Part shown: positions 20,093-54,186 of the stretch, in pieces | Numbering within the stretch: the stretch's first letter is position 1 | How the letters are laid out: each line of letters opens with the position of its first letter | Origin: Candidatus Dojkabacteria bacterium | Lineage (GTDB): Bacteria > Patescibacteriota > Dojkabacteria > SC72 | Direction: 5' to 3' | DNA length: 64,000 bases | Assembly (NCBI GenBank): GCA_012842045.1 | Contig: DUTP01000005.1 | Location: forward strand, 77,430-141,429 | Made by a program: the position numbers and the translations under genes | The notes under the pieces: generated by a model | Databases searched by the model: none | What the model was told of the DNA's origin: nothing | The model's input: only the letters and a program-made list of their open reading frames with translations

Positions 20093-21818
20093 TTTTGATT
20101 TTTTGTAAAACTTTAGTTACTTCTTGTAGCTTACTTAAAGCATGAGCTTTTTCATCTTCTTTTTCAAGTTCTTCACTTATACTAATTTGAGAAGCTAGGT
20201 TTTTTTGTATACCTTCATAGTAAGTTACCCTAATTCTTTTCATCGTTTGGTGAATATCTTCTGCTATGTCTTGTTGCTCTGTTGGTAGAGTTTTAGCATT
20301 GAAAATCATGTCTTCAAGTAATGGAGCTACATGAGCATCAGTACTTAGTTCTTCAAAAAGTTTTGTTCTATTAATTTTTGGTAAATTCTTCTTTATAGTT
20401 AAATATATTTTCTTAAGATGTTTATCTGTAATGTATTTTGAGTCGAGGATGAAGGAGTCTTCGATTTTTTCTACAAAGAGTAATAGTTGAATGTAACGAG
20501 TTGTTAAGTCTTCAGTTTTAGACCTTTTAATCTTTTTTGTCTCTGTCTTTTTATCTTTATAATTAGGCTTACTATCAATGATTTTTTCATCATCTAGTTG
20601 TATTCCTGTAACTCTGTAAAGCTTTTTCAAGTAGAGGTTTTTAGTATTTCTATCTTTCACAGAGTCAAGAATCGGTTTAATTTCTTTTCTAATTGTATTA
20701 ACATCACTTAATTTGTTCATATCTTTTCCTTTTGTGATCTCTGCAAGTATGTAGGAAAATGCTTCTTTCTTTTCTTTTATTATTTTTTCGAATTTCTCTG
20801 GTTCTTTTTGTAGCAGGTCATCAATATCTTTGTATGGTGCAGTACTTGCTGCATACGGATTCATACTTAGTTCTGAGGCTAAGATGAAACCTCGAATAAG
20901 TGCTTGTTGACCAGCCCTGTCAGAGTCAAAAAGGAAGAGTATATTCTTAGTGAGAGGTATGATGGATTCTAATTGTTTGGATGTGAGACTAGTTCCTAGT
21001 GGAGCTACTACATTTTTAACTCCATGTTGGTGTGCTGAGATAACATCGGTAGAACCTTCGCTTATTATAGCGAGGTCTGATTTTCTCATTTCTTGTCTTG
21101 ATTCGTATTGTGCAAAAAGATTATATGACTTATGAAATATTGGTGTCTCGGGAGAGTTCATATATTTAGGGCCATATTCATTTGTACCACTCTGTCTTGC
21201 TGTAAAAGCTATTACATCTCCTTTTCTAGATCTAATTGGAAACATTATCCTGTCAAAGAACTTCTCTCTTAATACACCATTTTTTTCTACAAATAGTCCT
21301 GTTTGAAGAAGCGTTCCCTTACTGTATGCACCTGATTTTTTAACTTGTTCTAGAAGTTTTGGGTATTTTGGTGAGTATCCAATTGCAAAATTCTTAATTG
21401 ATTCTCTGTTTATACCTCTGTTTAATACATATTCAAGAGCAGTTTTATCTCTTAGTAATGCATTGTAGTAATATTTCGTTGCTATGTAGTGAATATCTTT
21501 TAATTCTTTATACTTTTTGTTTCCTTGGGTCTTTTTTAACTGAACTCCTGCCACTTTTGCTAGCTTTTCTAAAGCTTCTACAAAATCAATATGTTCTATC
21601 TCTTGCAGAAAGTTAAATATGTCTCCAGATTTACCACAACCAAAACACTTGTATCTTTGAATATCTGGACTGACAATGAAAGATGGGGTTTTTTCTTTGT
21701 GAAAAGGGCATAGACCTGAGAAGTTTTTTCCTGCTTGTTTTAAGTGAACATATTTCTGAACAACTTGGACAATATCTACCTTATCTTTAATTTCTTCTAT
21801 CTGATTGTTAGGCTCCAT
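20085..21818 (-). CDS. dnaG: DNA primase
   Basis: CHC2 zinc finger CPFHKEKTPSF...CFGCG, TOPRIM (EGSTDV...DSDRAGQ), C-terminal helicase-interaction region. Confidence 0.85.
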   Translation of the reverse strand: MEPNNQIEEIKDKVDIVQVVQKYVHLKQAGKNFSGLCPFHKEKTPSFIVSPDIQRYKCFGCGKSGDIFNFLQEIEHIDFVEALEKLAKVAGVQLKKTQGNKKYKELKDIHYIATKYYYNALLRDKTALEYVLNRGINRESIKNFAIGYSPKYPKLLEQVKKSGAYSKGTLLQTGLFVEKNGVLREKFFDRIMFPIRSRKGDVIAFTARQSGTNEYGPKYMNSPETPIFHKSYNLFAQYESRQEMRKSDLAIISEGSTDVISAHQHGVKNVVAPLGTSLTSKQLESIIPLTKNILFLFDSDRAGQQALIRGFILASELSMNPYAASTAPYKDIDDLLQKEPEKFEKIIKEKKEAFSYILAEITKGKDMNKLSDVNTIRKEIKPILDSVKDRNTKNLYLKKLYRVTGIQLDDEKIIDSKPNYKDKKTETKKIKRSKTEDLTTRYIQLLLFVEKIEDSFILDSKYITDKHLKKIYLTIKKNLPKINRTKLFEELSTDAHVAPLLEDMIFNAKTLPTEQQDIAEDIHQTMKRIRVTYYEGIQKNLASQISISEELEKEDEKAHALSKLQEVTKVLQKIKNE

Positions 21819-21860
21819 TTGATTGATTATATCATTTAGAGCAGTATTTTCCTCTTTTAA

Positions 21861-22790
21861 CTATTTACACTCTAATGAATTCTCAACGATGACACATTCC
21901 ATATCTACAACACCTTTAGATGAGGATGTAGGTAATTGGATTTCTTTCTCATTAAAATACAGTTTGGTATTACTAATTCTTCCAGATATGATATGCAACT
22001 TGTTTTGAATTTCAAACTCTTTTTTAGTCGGTTCTAATACTTGTGCAATTACATTTACATCGTCAATATCAAGTTTTATCCAAGTAGCTGTCTCAAAAAT
22101 CTCTAAAACCACCTTATTAATCTTCACTTCTTCGGGTTTCTCTTCTTCATTTTTTGGAATATATGTAATATTTAATGTCTCAACAGTTTCAAGAATATTG
22201 TTGTTATTCTTCTGTGCTTTGATAGTAACAAGATTCCTTCCTTCTGTTAGTGTTATCTCTTTTTCAAAATTTCCTTCATCATCTACATCCGTACTGATAT
22301 CATTAATCTGGATAACGATGCCTTTTTCCGTCTTCCCTTTGATTGTAATCTTCTCGTTTTCCACTGTACTTTCCTTAGGTGGTTCAAATATTTCTAGCTT
22401 TGGAGGTGTTTGGAATTTGTATATTTGAGATATTATGTATCCTGCAATGAGTAATGTGAAAAGTGATACTAGAATGATAACAACAGTTTTTGGTGTGATG
22501 ACTAGTTTTTTTCTTTCTATTTTTTGTGGTGTTTTTTGTATCTCTTTCTCTGTACTTACAGGATTAGTTCTTCTGTAGAGTGCTAGGATTTTCTTAATAT
22601 CCAATCCTAGATACTTTGCATATATTTTGATGAAGCCTGTAAGGAAGACTTCTGATTGAAAAGGTGTGAATATGTTTTTTTCAATTGATTGGAGAAATCT
22701 TTTTTGTATTTTAGTATCAGCAGAGGCTTTCTCTAAGCTAATTCTTAATCTTTCTCTTTTGTTTTTTAATACTTCTCCTACTGTTATCAT
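21861..22790 (-). CDS. rodZ: RodZ-like protein (N-terminal HTH, TM, C-terminal beta-rich domain)
   Basis: XRE-type HTH (ITVGEVLKNKRERLRISLEKASADTKI), TM (VVIILVSLFTLLIAGYII), extracytoplasmic C-terminal domain. Confidence 0.55.
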   Translation of the reverse strand: MITVGEVLKNKRERLRISLEKASADTKIQKRFLQSIEKNIFTPFQSEVFLTGFIKIYAKYLGLDIKKILALYRRTNPVSTEKEIQKTPQKIERKKLVITPKTVVIILVSLFTLLIAGYIISQIYKFQTPPKLEIFEPPKESTVENEKITIKGKTEKGIVIQINDISTDVDDEGNFEKEITLTEGRNLVTIKAQKNNNNILETVETLNITYIPKNEEEKPEEVKINKVVLEIFETATWIKLDIDDVNVIAQVLEPTKKEFEIQNKLHIISGRISNTKLYFNEKEIQLPTSSSKGVVDMECVIVENSLECK

Positions 22791-49673: not shown

Positions 49674-50422
49674 TATTGTTATCAGAAAAAGAAGAGAAAT
49701 CTTTAATTTCTGGGTCAGGATATCTGTATATATTTTTACTGTTGAGGTAGGTCGTAATGTTTTACAGTGAAGATTACAGAATCCGTAGTTGCACATTTAA
49801 AACTGAATAGAAAGTAATTTCAATTAAGCAAATTAAGGGCGTATGGTGAATGCCTTGGCACAAAAGATCGATGAAGGACGTAGTAGATTGCGATAAGCTT
49901 CGGGTAGCTGTCAAACGAGCTTTGATCCGAAGATCTCCGAATGGAGTAATCCAACTGGGATTATGCCCAGTTATCATGCAGTGAATTCATAGCTGTATAG
50001 AAGAGCACGCAGGGAAGTGAAACCTCTCAGTACCTGCAGGAAAAGAGAACAAGAGTTTATTCCCCTAGTAGTGGCGAGCGAAAAGGGAAGAGCCTAAACC
50101 TATACTGTGTAAGAGGAATACGAAGCCTGATTCGCGTTGCGATGATGGCGGACTTGAACTCGCAGGTTGCTACTCGTGCAGTATGGGTGTTGTAAGAGTT
50201 AATGGAAGTGGTAGCAAACACTTCGAGGAGTTACAAAATTCCATTTTAGTAGAATATATCTGGAAAGATATGCCATAGAGAGTGATAGCCTCGTATACGA
50301 AAATGTGGAATCTCCTTTTTAATTTCTTAAGTACCACGGAACACGTGAGATTTTGTGGGAATCAGCCGATACCACTCGGCAAGGCTAAATATCTTTTGTG
50401 ACCGATAGCGAATTAGTATAGA

Positions 50423-50466
<44 letters not shown>

Positions 50467-51975
50467 ACTGAAACCATATGCTTACAAACAGTCGTAGCTG
50501 GTATATCCAGTGGCGGCGTGCCTATTGAAGAATGACCCAGTGAGTTCGTTGTGTGTGGCAAGGTTAACCATGTTTATTGGGGAGCCGAAGCGAAAGCGAG
50601 TCCGAATAGGGCACCTTGAGTCACATGCACGAGACCCGAAACCAGGTGATCCAGCCATGAGCAGAGTGAAGTTCTGAGAAATCAGGATGGAGGCTCGAAC
50701 TCGTTAATGTTACAAAATTATGAGATGACTTGTGGCTAGCGGTAACATGCCAAACGAACCTGGTAATAGCTGGTTCTCCCCGAAATAGCTTTAGGGCTAG
50801 CGTTGTGATTTAAGATGTGGGGGTAGAGCACTGATTGAATTTGGGGCCCGAAAGGGTACCCACTTCAGTCAAACTCCGAATACCATATTGAACATCACAG
50901 CAGTTAGAGCTAGGGATCTAAGTTCCTATGCTCAAGAGGGAAACAGCCCAGATCGTCAGATAAGGACCCTAAATTTTACCTTAGTGGGAAAGGAAGTGAA
51001 ATTTCTCAGACAGTTAGGAGGTTGGCTTAGAGGCAGCCATCCTTTAAAAAATGCGTAAAAGCTTACTAATCAAGAGATTTTGCACTTAAAATTAACGGGG
51101 CTGAAGGTAAATTCCGAAGCTGCGAATTTATACATACTTCGGTATGTATGGGTGGTAGGGGAGCGTTCTATACATGACCGACTTAGCAGTCGGTAATTAG
51201 CTGCGAAGGTGGCCCGTAAGGAGTTGCTGGAGCGTATAGAAGTGAGAATGCTGGGATGAGTAACGTAAAGCAGGTGAAAACCCTGCTCGCTGAATGTCTA
51301 AGGTTTCCATGGCTATGTCAGTCAACCATGGGTTAGTCGGTCCTAAGGAGAGGCTGAAAAGCGTATCCGATGGATAACAGGTTAATATTCCTGTACTACT
51401 GATATTTGAAATGGAGTATGAGGATTGAAGATGCAGGCCCCTTATTGGTTTGGGGTGTAAGCAACAAGAGAGCTCTTCTAGGAAAATCCGGAAGAGTGTT
51501 TCCACCTCGGTGGATGAACGCGAGTTGTGATACAAAGGTGACCTTCGGGAAGCCGATTTGTAGTACTTAATTCTCCAGGAAAAACTTCTATCTTTAACTA
51601 CTTCGGTAGTTAATAAAGTATTAGTAACCGTACTGCAATCCGACACCGGTAGACTGGTGTAAAAGCACCAAGGCGTACGAGTTATGCGTTGTTAAGGAAT
51701 TCGGCAAATTGACCCCGTAAGTTCGCAAGAAGGGGGACTCTACATCATAAGTTTTTTATTTGTGGTGATTAGAGTGGCACAGAATAGGGAAGAACGACTA
51801 GTTACCAAAACTACAGGCGCTTGCAAACTCGCAAGAGGATGTATAAGTGCTGACACCTGCCCAATGCCAGAAGGTTAAGATAATTTGTTAGCTCTCTGCT
51901 GGGTGCACTTCGGTGCCCTAGTGGTTGCGAAGCAAAGAGTCGAAGCCCTGGTCAATGGCGGCTGTAACTATTAGA

Positions 51976-53064
51976 CCTGGTGGGGTAGCAATACCCTGCC
52001 AGGAATTGTAGTTGTAAAATTTGGCTATATGCTGGAACGTCTGAGTATTTCTTGCTACTCATTAGATGATATTCAAATTGTAAGAAATTTGTAATCTCTA
52101 GTAGTTAAAATGTAAGAATGCAGATAATCAGCAGGAAAGATTTGTAATGTCAGATCCTATTTTTACAGAACAATTGAAATGGTTTCTCTCTGGATTTATC
52201 GATGGAGAGGGAAGCTTTTGTCTTAATATTAAGAGTAGAAAGGACTCTAGGTATGGTTTGAGAATAGAGCCAGCTTTTTATGTTTATCAACATGAAAAAA
52301 GTGTCCATATACTTGAATTGTTAAGAAAGATGTTTGGATGTGGAAGTATCCATAGAAAAACATCACCGTATAGCGTTTTTACGTATCAGATTTCTGGTAT
52401 AAAACCTTGCTATACCAAAGTTATTCCTTTCTTTGAGAAGTATCCGTTAATCGTAAAGTCTCAGACTTTTGAAATTTTCAAAAGAGCTGTTGATTTTATG
52501 TATAAAAAGCGACATCTAACTAAGGAAGGTTTTCTTTACTTGGTGGATTTAGTATATGAGATAAACCAACAAGGGAAAGGTAAAAAATGGGATAAAGAGA
52601 CAATAATTACAAAAATCCTCAGAGACTATACGCCAAACTCCTGATAGGGAGATGAGATAGTCCGACCTGTATGGCGACATACAGATGTATATAGAAATAT
52701 ATACACGAATCTAACAAACGTTGTTAGAGGGTAACACAAGTGAACGGTGGTAGATATATATCTACTGAGATATTTGCTAATCTCGGTTTGCTATCTAAAG
52801 ATATAGGGCCGTTTTAAAATCTAGCTATATGCTGGAACATCCTAAACGATACAAGTACCAAAGAGTAACAATCTTGTATTTATGGACAATCAGCAGGAAA
52901 GATCCAAGAAATTGGAAATCCTCAGAGGCTACATGCTAGACACAATATAATATTGTGAAGATATAGTCCGACCTCTACAGTGATGTAGAGAGATACACGA
53001 AGGTGTATCCGCCTAAAAATAGGTCTTCTAGTTTAATGAACACTAGATGGAAGTAACAGAAATG
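51976..53064 (+). mobile_element. Intron in 23S rRNA carrying a homing-endonuclease gene, with an internal degenerate endonuclease-less duplicate of the intron unit (boundaries uncertain by a few nt)
   Basis: rRNA homology breaks after ...CTATTAGA and resumes at CCTAAGGTAGCG (E. coli ~1917-1926 hotspot). The repeat blocks listed under the corresponding finding occur twice. Confidence 0.7.
52147..52644 (+). CDS. LAGLIDADG homing endonuclease (single-motif, 165 aa) encoded within the 23S intron
   Basis: LSGFIDGEGSF motif. Confidence 0.85.
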   Translation: MSDPIFTEQLKWFLSGFIDGEGSFCLNIKSRKDSRYGLRIEPAFYVYQHEKSVHILELLRKMFGCGSIHRKTSPYSVFTYQISGIKPCYTKVIPFFEKYPLIVKSQTFEIFKRAVDFMYKKRHLTKEGFLYLVDLVYEINQQGKGKKWDKETIITKILRDYTPNS

Positions 53065-53633
53065 CCTAAGGTAGCGTAATACCTTGTCACTTAATTAGTG
53101 ACTTGCATGAAAGGTGTAACGATTTTTCCTCTGTCTCGACAACGTGCTCGGTGAAATTGAAATGGCTGTGAAGATGCGGCCTACCTATACCAGGACAAAA
53201 AGACCCCGTGGAGCTTTACTTCAGCTTTGCATTGAGATAAGGTCTCGGATGTATAGAATATGTGGGAGACTATGAAGCAGTTTCGTCAGGAATTGCGGAG
53301 TCGACAGTGTAATACCACTCTTTTGATATTTTATTTCTAACAGTGTCCATTATCTGGATTCTAGACAGTGCATGGTGGGAAGTTTGACTGGGGCGGTTGC
53401 TTGCTAAAGAGTACCGCAAGCGCACTAAGGTCTCCTCAACCCGGATGGAAATCGGGTGAAGAGTGCATAAGCATAAGGAGGCTTTACTGTGAGGGAGACA
53501 TCCCGATCAGTTACGAAAGTAGGTTTAAGTGACCCTTTGGTTGCGCGTGGAAGCGCCATTGTTTAACGGAGATAAGCTACCCCGGGGATAACAGGCTAGT
53601 CTTGCCCGATAGTTCATATTGACGGCAAGGTTC

Positions 53634-53665
<32 letters not shown>

Positions 53666-53698
53666 ATTGGATAAGATCCCAAGGGTTGGACTGTTCGT

Positions 53699-53729
<31 letters not shown>

Positions 53730-54186
53730 CCGGCGTAAGCCAGGTCGGTCTCTATCCGGTATAGGCGTTGTATATTTGAGAGAATCATCCCCTAGTACGA
53801 AAGGATCGGGGAATGGTAACCTCTGGTCTACCAGCTGTTCTACCAAGAGCATAGCTGGGTAGCTAAGTTGCTTTCGGATAAGCACTGAAGGCATATAAGT
53901 GCGAAGCCAAACTCAAGATTAAATATACTTGTGTAGCTTGACTACATGGAAGGTCTGTGGAAGACTACCACATTGATAGGCTCTAAGTGTGAGTATAGTG
54001 ATATACTTAGCTGAGGAGTACTAATTGACCAAAAGCTTCTTTGATTTTTTATTACTTTCTGTTCGGTTTTGAGTGTACAATTACACTCTCGCTCTTTAGA
54101 ATTAAGTCCTGAGCTCTTCGAAAGAAGAGGTCAGGCAAAAGGTATTTATATCTATCTATATATATATAGATAGATAGATTCTTTTT

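Follow-up and report, generated by a model that had tools for sequence, protein, structure and literature searches.

The window, the whole 64-kb stretch of DNA analysed here, from a Dojkabacteria-like bacterium of a candidate phylum, contains a 23S rRNA gene that is interrupted in helix 69 (H69) by a 1.09-kb insert, in which a LAGLIDADG open reading frame (ORF) is accompanied by sequence blocks that occur twice. This arrangement raises the question of whether the insert is one intron followed by a decayed copy of itself or a pair of introns with separate histories, and of how the endonuclease gene reached its present position. The preliminary description of this DNA offered two readings, namely a pair of introns in tandem at neighbouring sites in H69, one of them without an endonuclease gene, and an internal duplication; the first was upheld, with the sites identified as L1917 and L1923, and the second was not.

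Layout of the insert

The 23S rRNA gene is 4,223 nt long, compared with 2,925 nt for the RF02541 model, and its features are listed in Table 1. Comparison with relatives resolves the 1.09-kb insert into two separate group I introns located 6 bases apart, at L1917 and L1923, rather than the one continuous insert previously supposed, and assigns the intervening AACGGT to the exon. The upstream 23S homology, formerly thought to end at 51975, was found from relatives to end at 51971 (...GTAACTAT, U1917), the 5′ splice site of intron 1, where uninterrupted relatives read GTAACTAT directly followed by AACGGT; the previously proposed exon restart at 53065 was correct. The exonic nature of AACGGT is deduced from the 23S sequences of relatives, which read ACTAT-AACGGT-(intron) or (intron)G-AACGGT-CCTAAGG. 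The order ACTAT-AACGGT-(L1923 intron with a homing endonuclease gene, HEG)-CCTAAGG, with no other intron at H69, is seen in at least seven distinct relatives, and at least about 60 genomes among the matches listed show ACTAT-(L1917 intron)G-AACGGTCCTAAGG, the intron starting right after the T of U1917. The resulting mini-exon covers H69 from the 3′ portion of its loop to the start of its 3′ strand, and in its entirety forms the predicted P1 5′ strand of intron 2.

Table 1. Positions of features of the 23S rRNA gene and its two introns in the window.
Feature	Position	Strand	Basis or remark
Host 23S rRNA gene	49822..54044	+	Rfam RF02541, 2257 bits, model positions 1-2925
Last six exon bases AACUAU (E. 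coli 1912-1917)	51966..51971	+	Predicted intron 1 P1 5′ strand
Intron 1, group I at L1917, 771 nt	51972..52742	+	Family signatures and RF00028
Intron 1 internal guide sequence GUAGUU	52008..52013	+	GTAGTT invariant across the L1917 family
Intron 1 P3/P4 core block GCTATATGCTGGAAC (repeat block 1)	52024..52038	+	Rfam model P3-P4 alignment
Intron 1 P4′/P6 core block AATCAGCAGGAAAGAT (repeat block 2)	52126..52141	+	Upstream boundary of the putatively exchanged module
P6 and endonuclease module, L1923 type, probably exchanged	52142..52612	+	85-86% identity to L008 and L007 modules
Single-motif LAGLIDADG homing endonuclease gene, 165 aa	52147..52644	+	ORF and PF00961
Intron 1 P6′/J6-7/P7/P3′ core, L1917 type (…GACTATACGCC)	52613..52638	+	Downstream boundary of the module
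Intron 1 P7′ strand (ATAGTC) and P9 hairpin CTGTATGGCGACATACAG (repeat block 3)	52656..52685	+	Rfam alignment and repeats
Mini-exon AACGGU (6 nt, E. coli 1918-1923)	52743..52748	+	Comparison with relatives
Intron 2, group I at L1923, 316 nt, without ORF	52749..53064	+	RF00028 and arm identity
Intron 2 internal guide sequence GCCGUU	52808..52813	+	GGGCCGTT conserved in all L1923 relatives
Intron 2 P6 hairpin TCCAA-GAAA-TTGGA, L1917 type, no ORF	52903..52916	+	Stem type comparison
Exon restart CCTAAGGTAGCG (E. coli C1924 onward)	53065..53076	+	23S alignment

Both introns end in an omega-G (G52742 of intron 1, …GTAACACAAGTG; G53064 of intron 2, …GTAACAGAAATG). The guide sequence GUAGUU of intron 1 is predicted to pair with the exon bases AACUAU, and GCCGUU of intron 2 with AACGGU, each pairing placing a U·G at the splice site. 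Because neither intron shares its guide sequence or its terminal G with the other, removal of both would restore the universal ACUAU-AACGGU-CCUAAGG, and the joined exons, GGCUGUAACUAUAACGGUCCUAAGGUAGCG, are identical to those of uninterrupted relatives. Both introns are expected, from their sequences, to be self-splicing and to be excised individually.

The three blocks described as occurring twice in the same order do so, GCTATATGCTGGAAC at 52024 and 52824, AATCAGCAGGAAAGAT at 52126 and 52888, and (G/T)ATAGTCCGACCT at 52656 and 52962 with a hairpin after each; none is found elsewhere in the 64 kb, and approximately zero matches are expected from shuffled sequences. The blocks are attributable to the conserved catalytic core common to two widespread site-specific intron families. 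Two stretches of intron 2 had also been read as the ends of a lost ORF. The supposed last ~10 codons (AAATCCTCAGAGGCTACATGC, 52916-52941) correspond in the Rfam alignment to the P6′/J6-7/P7/P3′ core, and a core matching this stretch is also present in ORF-less L1917 introns of many phyla, while the supposed first codons are a 15-nt, 87% match, at chance level, to the P5 region at 52082 and not to the ORF. Neither self-comparison nor the Rfam alignment revealed ORF remnants in intron 2.

Family assignment of the two introns

A search with the group I model RF00028, which had been proposed as a check for a single hit spanning the insert, gave separate matches to the two introns (threshold, 50 bits). 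Intron 2 scored 78.8 bits at 52762-52990 over the full model (1-253), indicating a complete group I core, and intron 1 scored 37.8 bits over its 3′ half only, because the 471-nt module splits P6. An ORF-less allele of intron 1 at L137 (L-numbers such as L137 and L008 denote loci of related genomes), with arms 97-98% identical and a short P6, scored 69.1 bits over the full model, and it is through this allele that the group I core of intron 1 is recognized. The alignment of intron 1 to the L137 allele breaks exactly 3′ of ...GGAAAGAT, and 12 nt stand in the allele in place of the module.

Intron 1 is assigned to the L1917 family, which is represented in bacteria and organelles, by its site after U1917 and by signatures in both arms, including TTGTAGTTGTAAAAYTYGGCTATATGCTGG, GAGTAT…CTACT in P5, GACTATACGCC, GATGAGATAGTCCGA, ATGGCGAC and the end GTAACAnnnnG; besides their near identity to L137, its arms are 77-83% identical to those of other L1917 introns and 58-76% identical to those of L1923 introns. 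Intron 2 is assigned to the L1923 family, since it shares the start GGTAGATAWATATCTAC and the end GTAACAGRAATG with the L1923 introns of relatives, and its arms are 84-89% identical to those of their HEG-bearing L1923 introns. As the literature differs on the subgroup (IA3, IB4 or IC1-like), no subgroup label is applied to either intron.

The P10 helix of intron 1 comprises only ~2 bp (AA/UU) in the lineage of the window. An interpretation of this weak P10 as an adaptation to the shared mini-exon was dropped, as P10 is equally weak at L077 and L020, which have no L1923 neighbour. Because the P10 of intron 1 and the P1 of intron 2 would both draw on these 6 nt in competition, efficient splicing is not self-evident.

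The endonuclease gene and its module

The LAGLIDADG ORF was confirmed at the position given previously. Its product matches PF00961 (LAGLIDADG_1) with an E value of 3e-20 and 73.4 bits (cut-off, 23.1), and with one motif, LSGFIDGEGSF, and a length within ~160-170 aa it is of the single-motif, homodimer type; matches in the PDB were to one domain at a time of two-domain enzymes and also to the homodimeric I-CeuI. The ORF begins within the P6 5′ strand, crosses P6′, J6/7, P7 and P3′, and stops at a TGA in P8. An AGGA motif resembling a Shine-Dalgarno sequence lies inside the AATCAGCAGGAAAGAT block of intron 1. The reading frame is intact, and the dN/dS ratio of 0.07-0.16 against L1923 homologues indicates that purifying selection acts on the enzyme.

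The clade of the endonuclease, as judged by protein comparison, is that of L1923 and does not match its L1917 host intron. The enzyme is 63-85% identical to L1923 HEG products and 19-34% identical to those of 23 other L1917 HEGs, and in a neighbour-joining tree it stands beside L008 and L007, nested within the L1923 clade, rather than in the L1917 HEG clade expected of a resident of an L1917 intron. The nearest L1923 HEG lies at a dS of ~0.74, which suggests that the actual donor is outside the sampled L1923 HEGs. The L1923 ancestry of the module is not visible from the sequence of the window alone.

The same mismatch extends to the P6 stem-loop as a whole. The identity of the P6/HEG module of intron 1 to L1917 HEG modules is 63-66%, well below its identity to the L1923 modules of L008 and L007 (Table 1), and its 8-bp P6 stem, TTTGTAAT (52141-52148) with ATTACAAA (52606-52613), is of the type YTTGYAA/TTRCAAR, which is found in almost all HEG-bearing L1923 introns, L003 departing from it at two positions. 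Intron 2 lacks this L1923 trait of a YTTGYAA/TTRCAAR stem enclosing a LAGLIDADG gene, both parts of which are found in intron 1. Its L6 is instead a clean 14-nt GNRA hairpin, and its 17-nt P6 module is also present in the L1917 introns of L137, L148 and L149, that of L137 being 100% identical; the stem type TCCAAA/TTTGGA borders the native HEG of the L1917 introns L142 and L104. P6 stem types sort by family, with the window/L064 and L144 as exceptions, and among 59 distinct P6 modules a mean of 6.6 bp is formed with the module's own partner versus 2.9 bp with mismatched partners, as expected of a real helix.

A trace of the transfer may also be seen at the 3′ end of the ORF. The L1923 ORFs end at the TAA in GACTAAACGC, with the C-terminus …RILRD/G; in the window this stop (GACTAA) is lost in the L1917-type core (GACTAT), and the ORF is extended by five codons (YTPNS) because the L1917-type core forms the 3′ junction.

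Distribution among relatives

A genome scan with the pattern GGCGGCYGTAACTATNND matched at least 120 loci, and the counts derived from it are lower bounds and not a census. Approximately half of the listed matches did not belong to the L1917 family (apparent chance matches outside rRNA or other insertions), and a core-motif filter was applied; the exon-resumption pattern TAAGGTAGC misses loci with an L1931 intron, which were included by a revised pattern, and the metagenome matches L141 and L155, with no exon anchor upstream, were left out. On this basis, at least about 60 of the at least 120 loci listed carry L1917 introns, in many bacterial phyla; an L1931 intron often accompanies them in tandem, and at least about 16 genomes among the matches listed carry this L1917 and L1931 pair. 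The L1917 signature is also present at the Coxiella endosymbiont locus L071.

Five states of the H69 region were sampled: an L1923 intron alone (state A); both introns with their own genes (state B), as in L142 and L150, where an L1917 intron with its own gene stands beside an L1923 intron; both introns without genes (state C), as in L137, where neither has an ORF; the gene in the “wrong” intron (state D), as in the window; and a decayed partner (state E), as in L144, where a 161-nt, core-less L1923 relic lies beside the L1917 intron. The same intron pair thus occurs among relatives with and without the gene, in agreement with the earlier suggestion of a link to the gain and loss cycle of homing endonucleases.

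The window differs from L064 at 64 of 2,154 exon positions, 4 of 771 positions in intron 1 and 0 of 316 in intron 2, and from L137 at 115 of 2,151 and 26 of 980 exon positions and 0 of 316 positions in intron 2. The introns are therefore ~99.5-100% identical between genomes with ~3-5% divergence of the 23S exons, which suggests that the intron pair probably spreads as one unit, although in principle cross-strain metagenome assembly, rather than transfer, could also produce such identity.

Alternative explanations

A tandem or internal duplication of one intron, followed by loss of the endonuclease core from the second copy with ORF stubs left behind, would account for the four colinear blocks common to both introns (71-95% identity) and for their similar overall architecture, in which P6 holds an ORF or a hairpin. 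It is scarcely credible, however, that intron 2 is such a degenerate, endonuclease-deleted copy, as the preliminary description proposed. With P6 set aside, the identity between the two introns is only 62-73%, while intron 1 is 77-97% and intron 2 84-89% identical to different families; the guide sequences differ, as do the P1, P2, P5 and P9.x regions; intron 2 is orthologous to the sole intron of at least seven distinct relatives; its 14-nt L6 hairpin holds no ORF remnant; and L1917 introns of many phyla, ORF-less ones included, conserve the shared blocks to the same degree. Another possible history is that the gene is native to intron 1, an HEG-bearing L1917 intron having invaded a genome with an ORF-less L1923 intron, and that the likeness to L1923 reflects ancient common ancestry. 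LAGLIDADG genes in P6 are common among L1917 introns, and the state B genomes demonstrate that an HEG-bearing L1917 intron can adjoin an L1923 intron. This history nevertheless appears very unlikely, given that the window enzyme lies within the L1923 clade (85% identity to L008) and that each of the 15 remaining distinct L1917 enzymes of the tree, those of the Dojkabacteria-like L142 and L104 among them, falls in the other clade; moreover, the P6 stem around the gene is of the L1923 type, the loss of the stop codon is the mark of a transplanted 3′ junction, and an L1917-type hairpin is present in intron 2.

All of the sequences derive from metagenome assemblies, and the joints coincide with repeated blocks, as they would if reads of different strains or introns had been mis-joined at the shared core. 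Such an artefact is hardly conceivable here, since the same architecture is present in three independent assemblies: it is found in a 752-kb NCBI contig of a metagenome-assembled genome (MAG), in an independent Logan assembly of SRR2420280 that is 100% identical over 2,887 nt, and, with 64 exon differences, in a Dojkabacteria MAG. Exact matches between the shared blocks also extend to 15-16 nt at most, less than the usual assembly k-mers, and the reading frame of the ORF continues unbroken through the 3′ joint. It is likewise highly improbable that the insert, or intron 2 alone, goes unspliced, whether as a retained expansion segment or as a segment excised by RNase to leave a fragmented 23S rRNA. 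Many non-intron insertions are described for CPR rRNAs in the part of the literature drawn on here (PMC11270868), and the L144 relic, having no ribozyme core, must be tolerated or otherwise removed. Both window introns, on the other hand, have complete cores, guides capable of U·G pairing and a terminal G, and intron 2 exceeds the Rfam gathering score. H69 is an essential intersubunit bridge, and the location of the insert in its loop and stem makes retention unlikely.

A model of module exchange

The explanation that we consider very probable is that two independent introns, at L1917 and L1923, have had their P6/endonuclease modules exchanged by recombination in the shared core blocks. In Dojkabacteria-like sister lineages, the L1923 family is the sole H69 intron and carries this LAGLIDADG gene in its P6 loop; in the lineage of the window, according to this model, the L1923-type P6 with its gene would have entered the L1917 intron, and a gene-less L1917-type P6 hairpin the L1923 intron. 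The mechanism was most likely homologous recombination or gene conversion, for which the core blocks flanking P6 and common to both families, CAGCAGGAAAGA upstream and AATCCTCAGAG downstream, would have served as handles. The events may have been a reciprocal swap or two separate conversions through an intermediate with both introns ORF-less, such as L137; the sampled states fit a passage from D to C or from C to D equally, each requiring two events.

The enzyme probably still cuts the uninterrupted H69 target GGCTGTAACTATAACGGTCCTAAGGTAGCG, as I-CeuI-type enzymes do, and because both introns interrupt this target, the host copy would be immune. Indirect support for such cleavage comes from the low dN/dS and from the much greater likeness of introns than of exons between genomes. 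When an empty allele is cut, repair would be expected to copy both introns together by co-conversion, and the intron pair would then form a composite homing element served by one endonuclease. A broader proposal, which we regard as possible but somewhat doubtful, is that the mobile unit is the P6 stem-loop together with its gene, hopping, possibly reciprocally, between neighbouring introns via the core blocks, and that one endonuclease drives a two-ribozyme element. The 6-nt exon would in that case serve both as the P1 substrate of intron 2 and as the P10 partner of intron 1, so that splicing would have to be ordered or cooperative, and the L144 relic would represent the end point, a dependent or dead partner intron.

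Relation to known systems

A known bacterial 23S rRNA gene with more than one group I intron at H69-H71 is that of Synechococcus sp. C9, which has introns at L1917, L1931 and L2593 (Haugen et al., 2007, PMC1995217). As in the window, its single-motif LAGLIDADG genes begin in P6 and extend into the ribozyme core, its L1917 intron is of the same family, and a short exon (14 nt in C9) separates the neighbours; the second site in the window is L1923, hence an exon of only 6 nt. In the Synechococcus study the intron and endonuclease clades match the site, unlike the L1923 enzyme in the L1917 intron described here. On the archaeal contig KP308720.1, group I introns at LSU/1923 (21440-21763) and LSU/1931 (21772-22514) imply an exon of 8 nt (Nawrocki et al., 2018, PMC6125680). 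This is likewise a tandem at the same hotspot with a tiny exon, and its L1923 intron also lies outside organelles, but the domain of life and the pair of sites differ, and no exchange of modules between the introns was reported there.

The window enzyme resembles I-CeuI, of the Chlamydomonas chloroplast L1923 intron, in being a single-motif, homodimer-type LAGLIDADG protein of the L1923 site family (E value of 7.7e-14 to PDB chain 2ex5). The similarity is distant, and the best PDB matches are to I-OnuI-type monomeric enzymes, one domain at a time; the host here is bacterial rather than a chloroplast, the gene lies outside the L1923 intron, and the target specificity is a prediction. The published I-CeuI target, which we take to be TAACTATAACGGTCCTAAGGTAGCGA, spans both 1917 and 1923. 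Coxiella burnetii is also said to combine an L1917 intron of the same family, Cbu.L1917, reportedly without an ORF, with a second intron, Cbu.L1951, at a distance given as 34 nt of exon; the second intron in the window is at L1923 instead, and we know of no module exchange in the Coxiella introns.

Among CPR bacteria, to which the present host belongs, insertions were reported in 82% of 23S genes in a study of the endonuclease I-ShaI, the cited part of which describes single-domain LAGLIDADG_1 genes at 1917 and other sites, with ORF-bearing and ORF-less versions at one site (Tsurumaki et al., 2024, PMC11270868). Closely related LAGLIDADG proteins were found there at different sites, and ectopic transposition was suggested by the authors; the sites named in the same part of the article do not include position 1923, and no case is resolved as to which part moved. 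In the window, unlike those cases, the moved unit would be the P6 stem-loop with its gene, with a reciprocal hairpin in the neighbouring intron. Movement of HEGs is also described for nuclear rDNA, from one intron to another at the same site or a neighbouring one (Haugen et al., 2004, as cited in PMC1299323). There an HEG can become established in the intron of a nearby site since the DNA target of its enzyme is unchanged, and, as proposed here, the gene moves separately from the intron that carries it. According to the passages cited, those are His-Cys box genes of eukaryotic nuclear rDNA, and their movement was inferred across distant species, whereas the present case concerns a bacterial LAGLIDADG gene and a move of 6 nt within one gene, with states A, B, C and E also sampled.

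Implications

The finding agrees with what is currently understood about group I introns and LAGLIDADG enzymes and leaves the view of how they work unchanged, being a tidy yet unsurprising case of selfish-gene shuffling. For annotation, one “insertion” in H69 can be two introns and a 6-nt exon, and gene callers lengthen such ORFs at either end. The sampled states illustrate, at nucleotide resolution, how an HEG could switch its host intron and yet keep its predicted DNA target, the conserved ribozyme core itself being the probable recombination handle.

Organization of the Insert in the 23S rRNA Gene

The window is gene-dense, with a G+C content of ~35%, and contains a single rRNA operon (16S, tRNA-Ile, tRNA-Ala, 23S and 5S), in which the helix 69 (H69) region of the 23S rRNA gene is, almost certainly, interrupted by two group I introns separated by a mini-exon. 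This anatomy was derived from the DNA around endonuclease homologues and from a scan of species genomes.

Features of the 23S rRNA gene (window coordinates; intron sites in E. coli numbering)
Feature	Position	Length	Site or sequence
23S rRNA gene	49822-54044	4223 nt	
Last exon base before intron 1	51971		…GTAACTAT, E. coli U1917
Intron 1	51972-52742	771 nt	L1917
P1-extending hairpin of intron 1	51976-52003		CCTGGTGGGGTAGCAATACCCTGCCAGG
AGGA motif	52134-52137		P4'/P6 core
5' strand of P6 stem, intron 1	52141-52149 region		8-bp stem
Start codon	52147-52149		
LAGLIDADG ORF	52147-52644	165 aa	
Mini-exon	52743-52748	6 exon bases	AACGGT, E. coli 1918-1923
Intron 2	52749-53064	316 nt	L1923

Every distinct endonuclease-bearing relative reads …GTAACTAT AACGGT, then an intron of the form GGTAGATA(A/T)ATATCTAC … GTAACAGGAATG, then CCTAAGGTAGCG; these relatives carry a single intron after U1923, with the endonuclease gene inside, and no insertion after U1917. 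When 185,579 species genomes were scanned with the pattern GGCGGCYGTAACTATNND, at least 120 loci matched; in about 60 of the 120 listed, one intron family, ending in …GTAACAnnnnG and followed by AACGGTCCTAAGG, lies directly after U1917. The window therefore contains intron 1, the mini-exon and intron 2. As read from the sequence, the guides GUAGUU (intron 1) and GCCGUU (intron 2) pair with the preceding six exon bases, AACUAU and AACGGU, respectively, each with a U·G at the splice site; the last base of both introns is G, and taking out both restores the universal H69 sequence. The preliminary description had ended 23S homology at 51975, beyond the actual exon end, and had taken the insert as continuous, whereas the six mini-exon bases interrupt it. 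In the Rfam group I search that it had proposed, intron 2 scored 78.8 bits, above threshold, but intron 1 scored only 37.8 bits, because a 471-nt module splits its P6; the ORF-less allele of intron 1 in the related locus L137 scored 69.1 bits.

Without both introns, the gene retains 3136 nt (4223 - 771 - 316), ~210 nt above the 2925-nt bacterial model, and a similar length was found in the relative L003 (3933 - 791 = 3142 nt); the 23S gene of the window and its relatives must therefore contain further short lineage-wide insertions beyond the introns.

Identity of the Repeated Blocks

Three blocks occur twice in the same order, as originally described: the copies are exact or nearly so and absent elsewhere in the window, and shuffled sequences gave an expectation of ~0 matches. 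For an insert described as carrying a LAGLIDADG gene plus an endonuclease-deleted degenerate copy of itself, two readings had been offered, namely tandem introns at adjacent H69 sites, one without its endonuclease gene, or an internal duplication. Rfam alignments identify the repeats as the ribozyme core (P3/P4, P4'/P6, P6'/J6-7/P7 and P7'/P9), which is kept in both site families, across phyla and in ORF-less introns. What had been taken for the 5' end of an ORF in intron 2 matches P5 over 15 nt, and the supposed 3' remnant is the P6'/J6-7/P7/P3' core, into which the ORF of intron 1 extends; L1917 introns with an ORF reaching into the ribozyme core are already known (PMC1995217). P6 of intron 2, with its L6 loop, is a clean hairpin, TCCAA-GAAA-TTGGA. 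Tandem introns at L1917 and L1923 thus stand, and the degenerate self-copy with ORF stubs falls. The preliminary description is, as a whole, partly confirmed in its observations and partly supported in its interpretation.

An L1923-Type Endonuclease Module in an L1917 Intron

The predicted LAGLIDADG ORF is present and intact (dN/dS 0.07-0.16) and encodes a single-motif protein (PF00961, E 3e-20) with many PDB relatives, including I-CeuI. Its product is 63-85% identical to L1923-intron enzymes and only 19-34% identical to 23 enzymes from other L1917 introns. In a neighbour-joining tree, the enzymes form two clades by site. The window enzyme and that of L064, a locus with the same intron architecture and a 98.8% identical endonuclease, nest within the L1923 clade next to L008 and L007; the L1917 clade takes in L142 and L104, two loci with L1917 introns closely similar to that of the window.

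Segment identities reveal a mosaic. The arms of intron 1 are 77-83% identical to L1917 introns (97-98% to L137) and 58-76% to L1923 introns, and its P6/endonuclease module 63-66% and 85-86%, respectively; the arms of intron 2 are 59-75% identical to L1917 and 84-89% to L1923 introns, and its 17-nt P6 module is identical to that of the L137 L1917 intron. The P6 stems support this pattern: in nearly every L1923 intron with a gene the stem is YTTGYAA…TTRCAAR, the window L1917 intron has TTTGTAAT…ATTACAAA (8 bp paired), the L142 and L104 L1917 introns enclose their own gene in TCCAAA…TTTGGA, and the window L1923 intron has TCCAA-GAAA-TTGGA. P6 is a genuine covarying helix, with own partners pairing over a mean of 6.6 bp versus 2.9 bp for shuffled partners (59 distinct modules). 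L1923 ORFs stop at the TAA in GACTAAACGC; because the L1917-type core (GACTATACGCC) lacks this stop at the 3' joint, the window ORF runs on for five more residues (YTPNS) to a stop in P8.

Two bases of the start codon, A and T, lie within the 5' strand of P6, and the sole Shine-Dalgarno-like motif, AGGA, belongs to the P4'/P6 core; judged from these positions, ribozyme folding and endonuclease translation should be mutually exclusive. In several L1923 introns (L003, L010, L142 intron 2), the endonuclease frame extends upstream without a stop as far as the first base of the intron, so that proteins P0006, P0013 and similar are called at 187-228 aa with an N-terminal extension over P1-P5; the conserved part of these endonucleases begins only near P6. 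The P1-extending hairpin of intron 1 (CCTAGTGAAAGCTAGG in L137) is a second small module polymorphism between alleles otherwise 97-98% identical.

Intron States in Relatives

Arrangements at L1917 and L1923 in the window and related 23S loci
State	Arrangement	Loci
A	L1923 intron alone, gene-bearing	Many loci
B	L1917 intron with L1917-type gene (…FYIVGFVDGEGSFNISF…), L1923 intron with L1923-type gene; both LAGLIDADG genes full; 6-nt mini-exon as in the window	L142:2737-4279 (Ga0116186_1008353), L150 (ERZ795049 NODE_3795)
C	No ORF in either intron; P6 hairpins of the two introns identical; intron 2 100% identical to the window's	L137, L148, L149
D	Window arrangement	Window, L002, L064
E	ORF-less L1917 intron with L1923-type P6 stem, 161-nt core-less L1923 relic	L144

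Essentially one difference, the P6 module of intron 1, separates the window from state C. In L144:1517-1997 (metagenome contig LDZU01003249.1), the L1917 intron (314 nt; RF00028, 59.3 bits) has the P6 stem GCTTGTA…TACAAG; the relic has kept its 5' hairpins, its P7'/P9 region and its end, GTAACAGAATG, and, because the guide sequence and the entire P3-P7 core are missing, should, on sequence grounds, be unable to self-splice out of H69.

Among the approximately 60 L1917-intron genomes listed, about 16 carry a second intron directly after AACGGTCCTAAGGT (L1931; 14-nt exon), in Solirubrobacterales, Nitrospira, Gemmatimonadota and other hosts (L021, L024, L031, L034, L050, L060, L070, L072, L078, L084, L099, L109, L123, L125, L128 and others). 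Tandem introns at the H69 hotspot seem common in uncultured bacteria.

Comparison with Known Systems

Multiple LAGLIDADG-bearing group I introns are known in bacterial 23S rRNA genes at L1917, L1931 and L2593, where both the introns and their enzymes group according to insertion site (PMC1995217), whereas the window has an L1923-clade enzyme inside an L1917 intron. An archaeal contig has L1923 and L1931 introns 8 nt apart (PMC6125680). For the Candidate Phyla Radiation (CPR), one survey reports insertions in 82% of 23S genes, catalogues rRNA insertions with single-domain LAGLIDADG genes, with site cleavage shown for one enzyme, and remarks on related enzymes at differing rRNA sites (PMC11270868). 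In nuclear rDNA, endonuclease genes are documented to shift to introns at neighbouring sites (PMC1299323). Given these known tandem introns, CPR insertions and endonuclease gene movements, the window introns and endonuclease are new members of known families; P6-module exchange resolved between adjacent introns, with several relative states, was not found in the literature compared.

Probable Module Exchange and Spread

The core blocks …CAGCAGGAAAGA(T) and AAATCCTCAGAG… on either side of the P6 module are the same in both introns and, being common to both, would allow the module to move by homologous recombination or gene conversion, from intron to intron or with incoming DNA. Such transfer of the module is probable; a reciprocal swap may have come first, or two conversions may have passed through an intermediate with both introns ORF-less.

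The window differs from L064 at 64/2154 exon positions, 4/771 in intron 1 and 0/316 in intron 2, and from L137 at 141/~3130 exon positions, yet intron 2 is identical; introns more alike than exons are consistent with a recent lateral spread in which the pair moved as a single unit. In Chlamydomonas chloroplasts, the L1923 enzyme is I-CeuI, which has a published target that covers both 1917 and 1923. On this model, the target would be lost with either intron alone, and repair of a cut empty allele would copy the two introns into it together; we give even chances to homing as such a composite two-intron unit. In state B, two different endonucleases would target overlapping sites 6 bp apart. The endonuclease module is a presence/absence polymorphism among close relatives, which bears out the link to homing-endonuclease turnover drawn at the outset.
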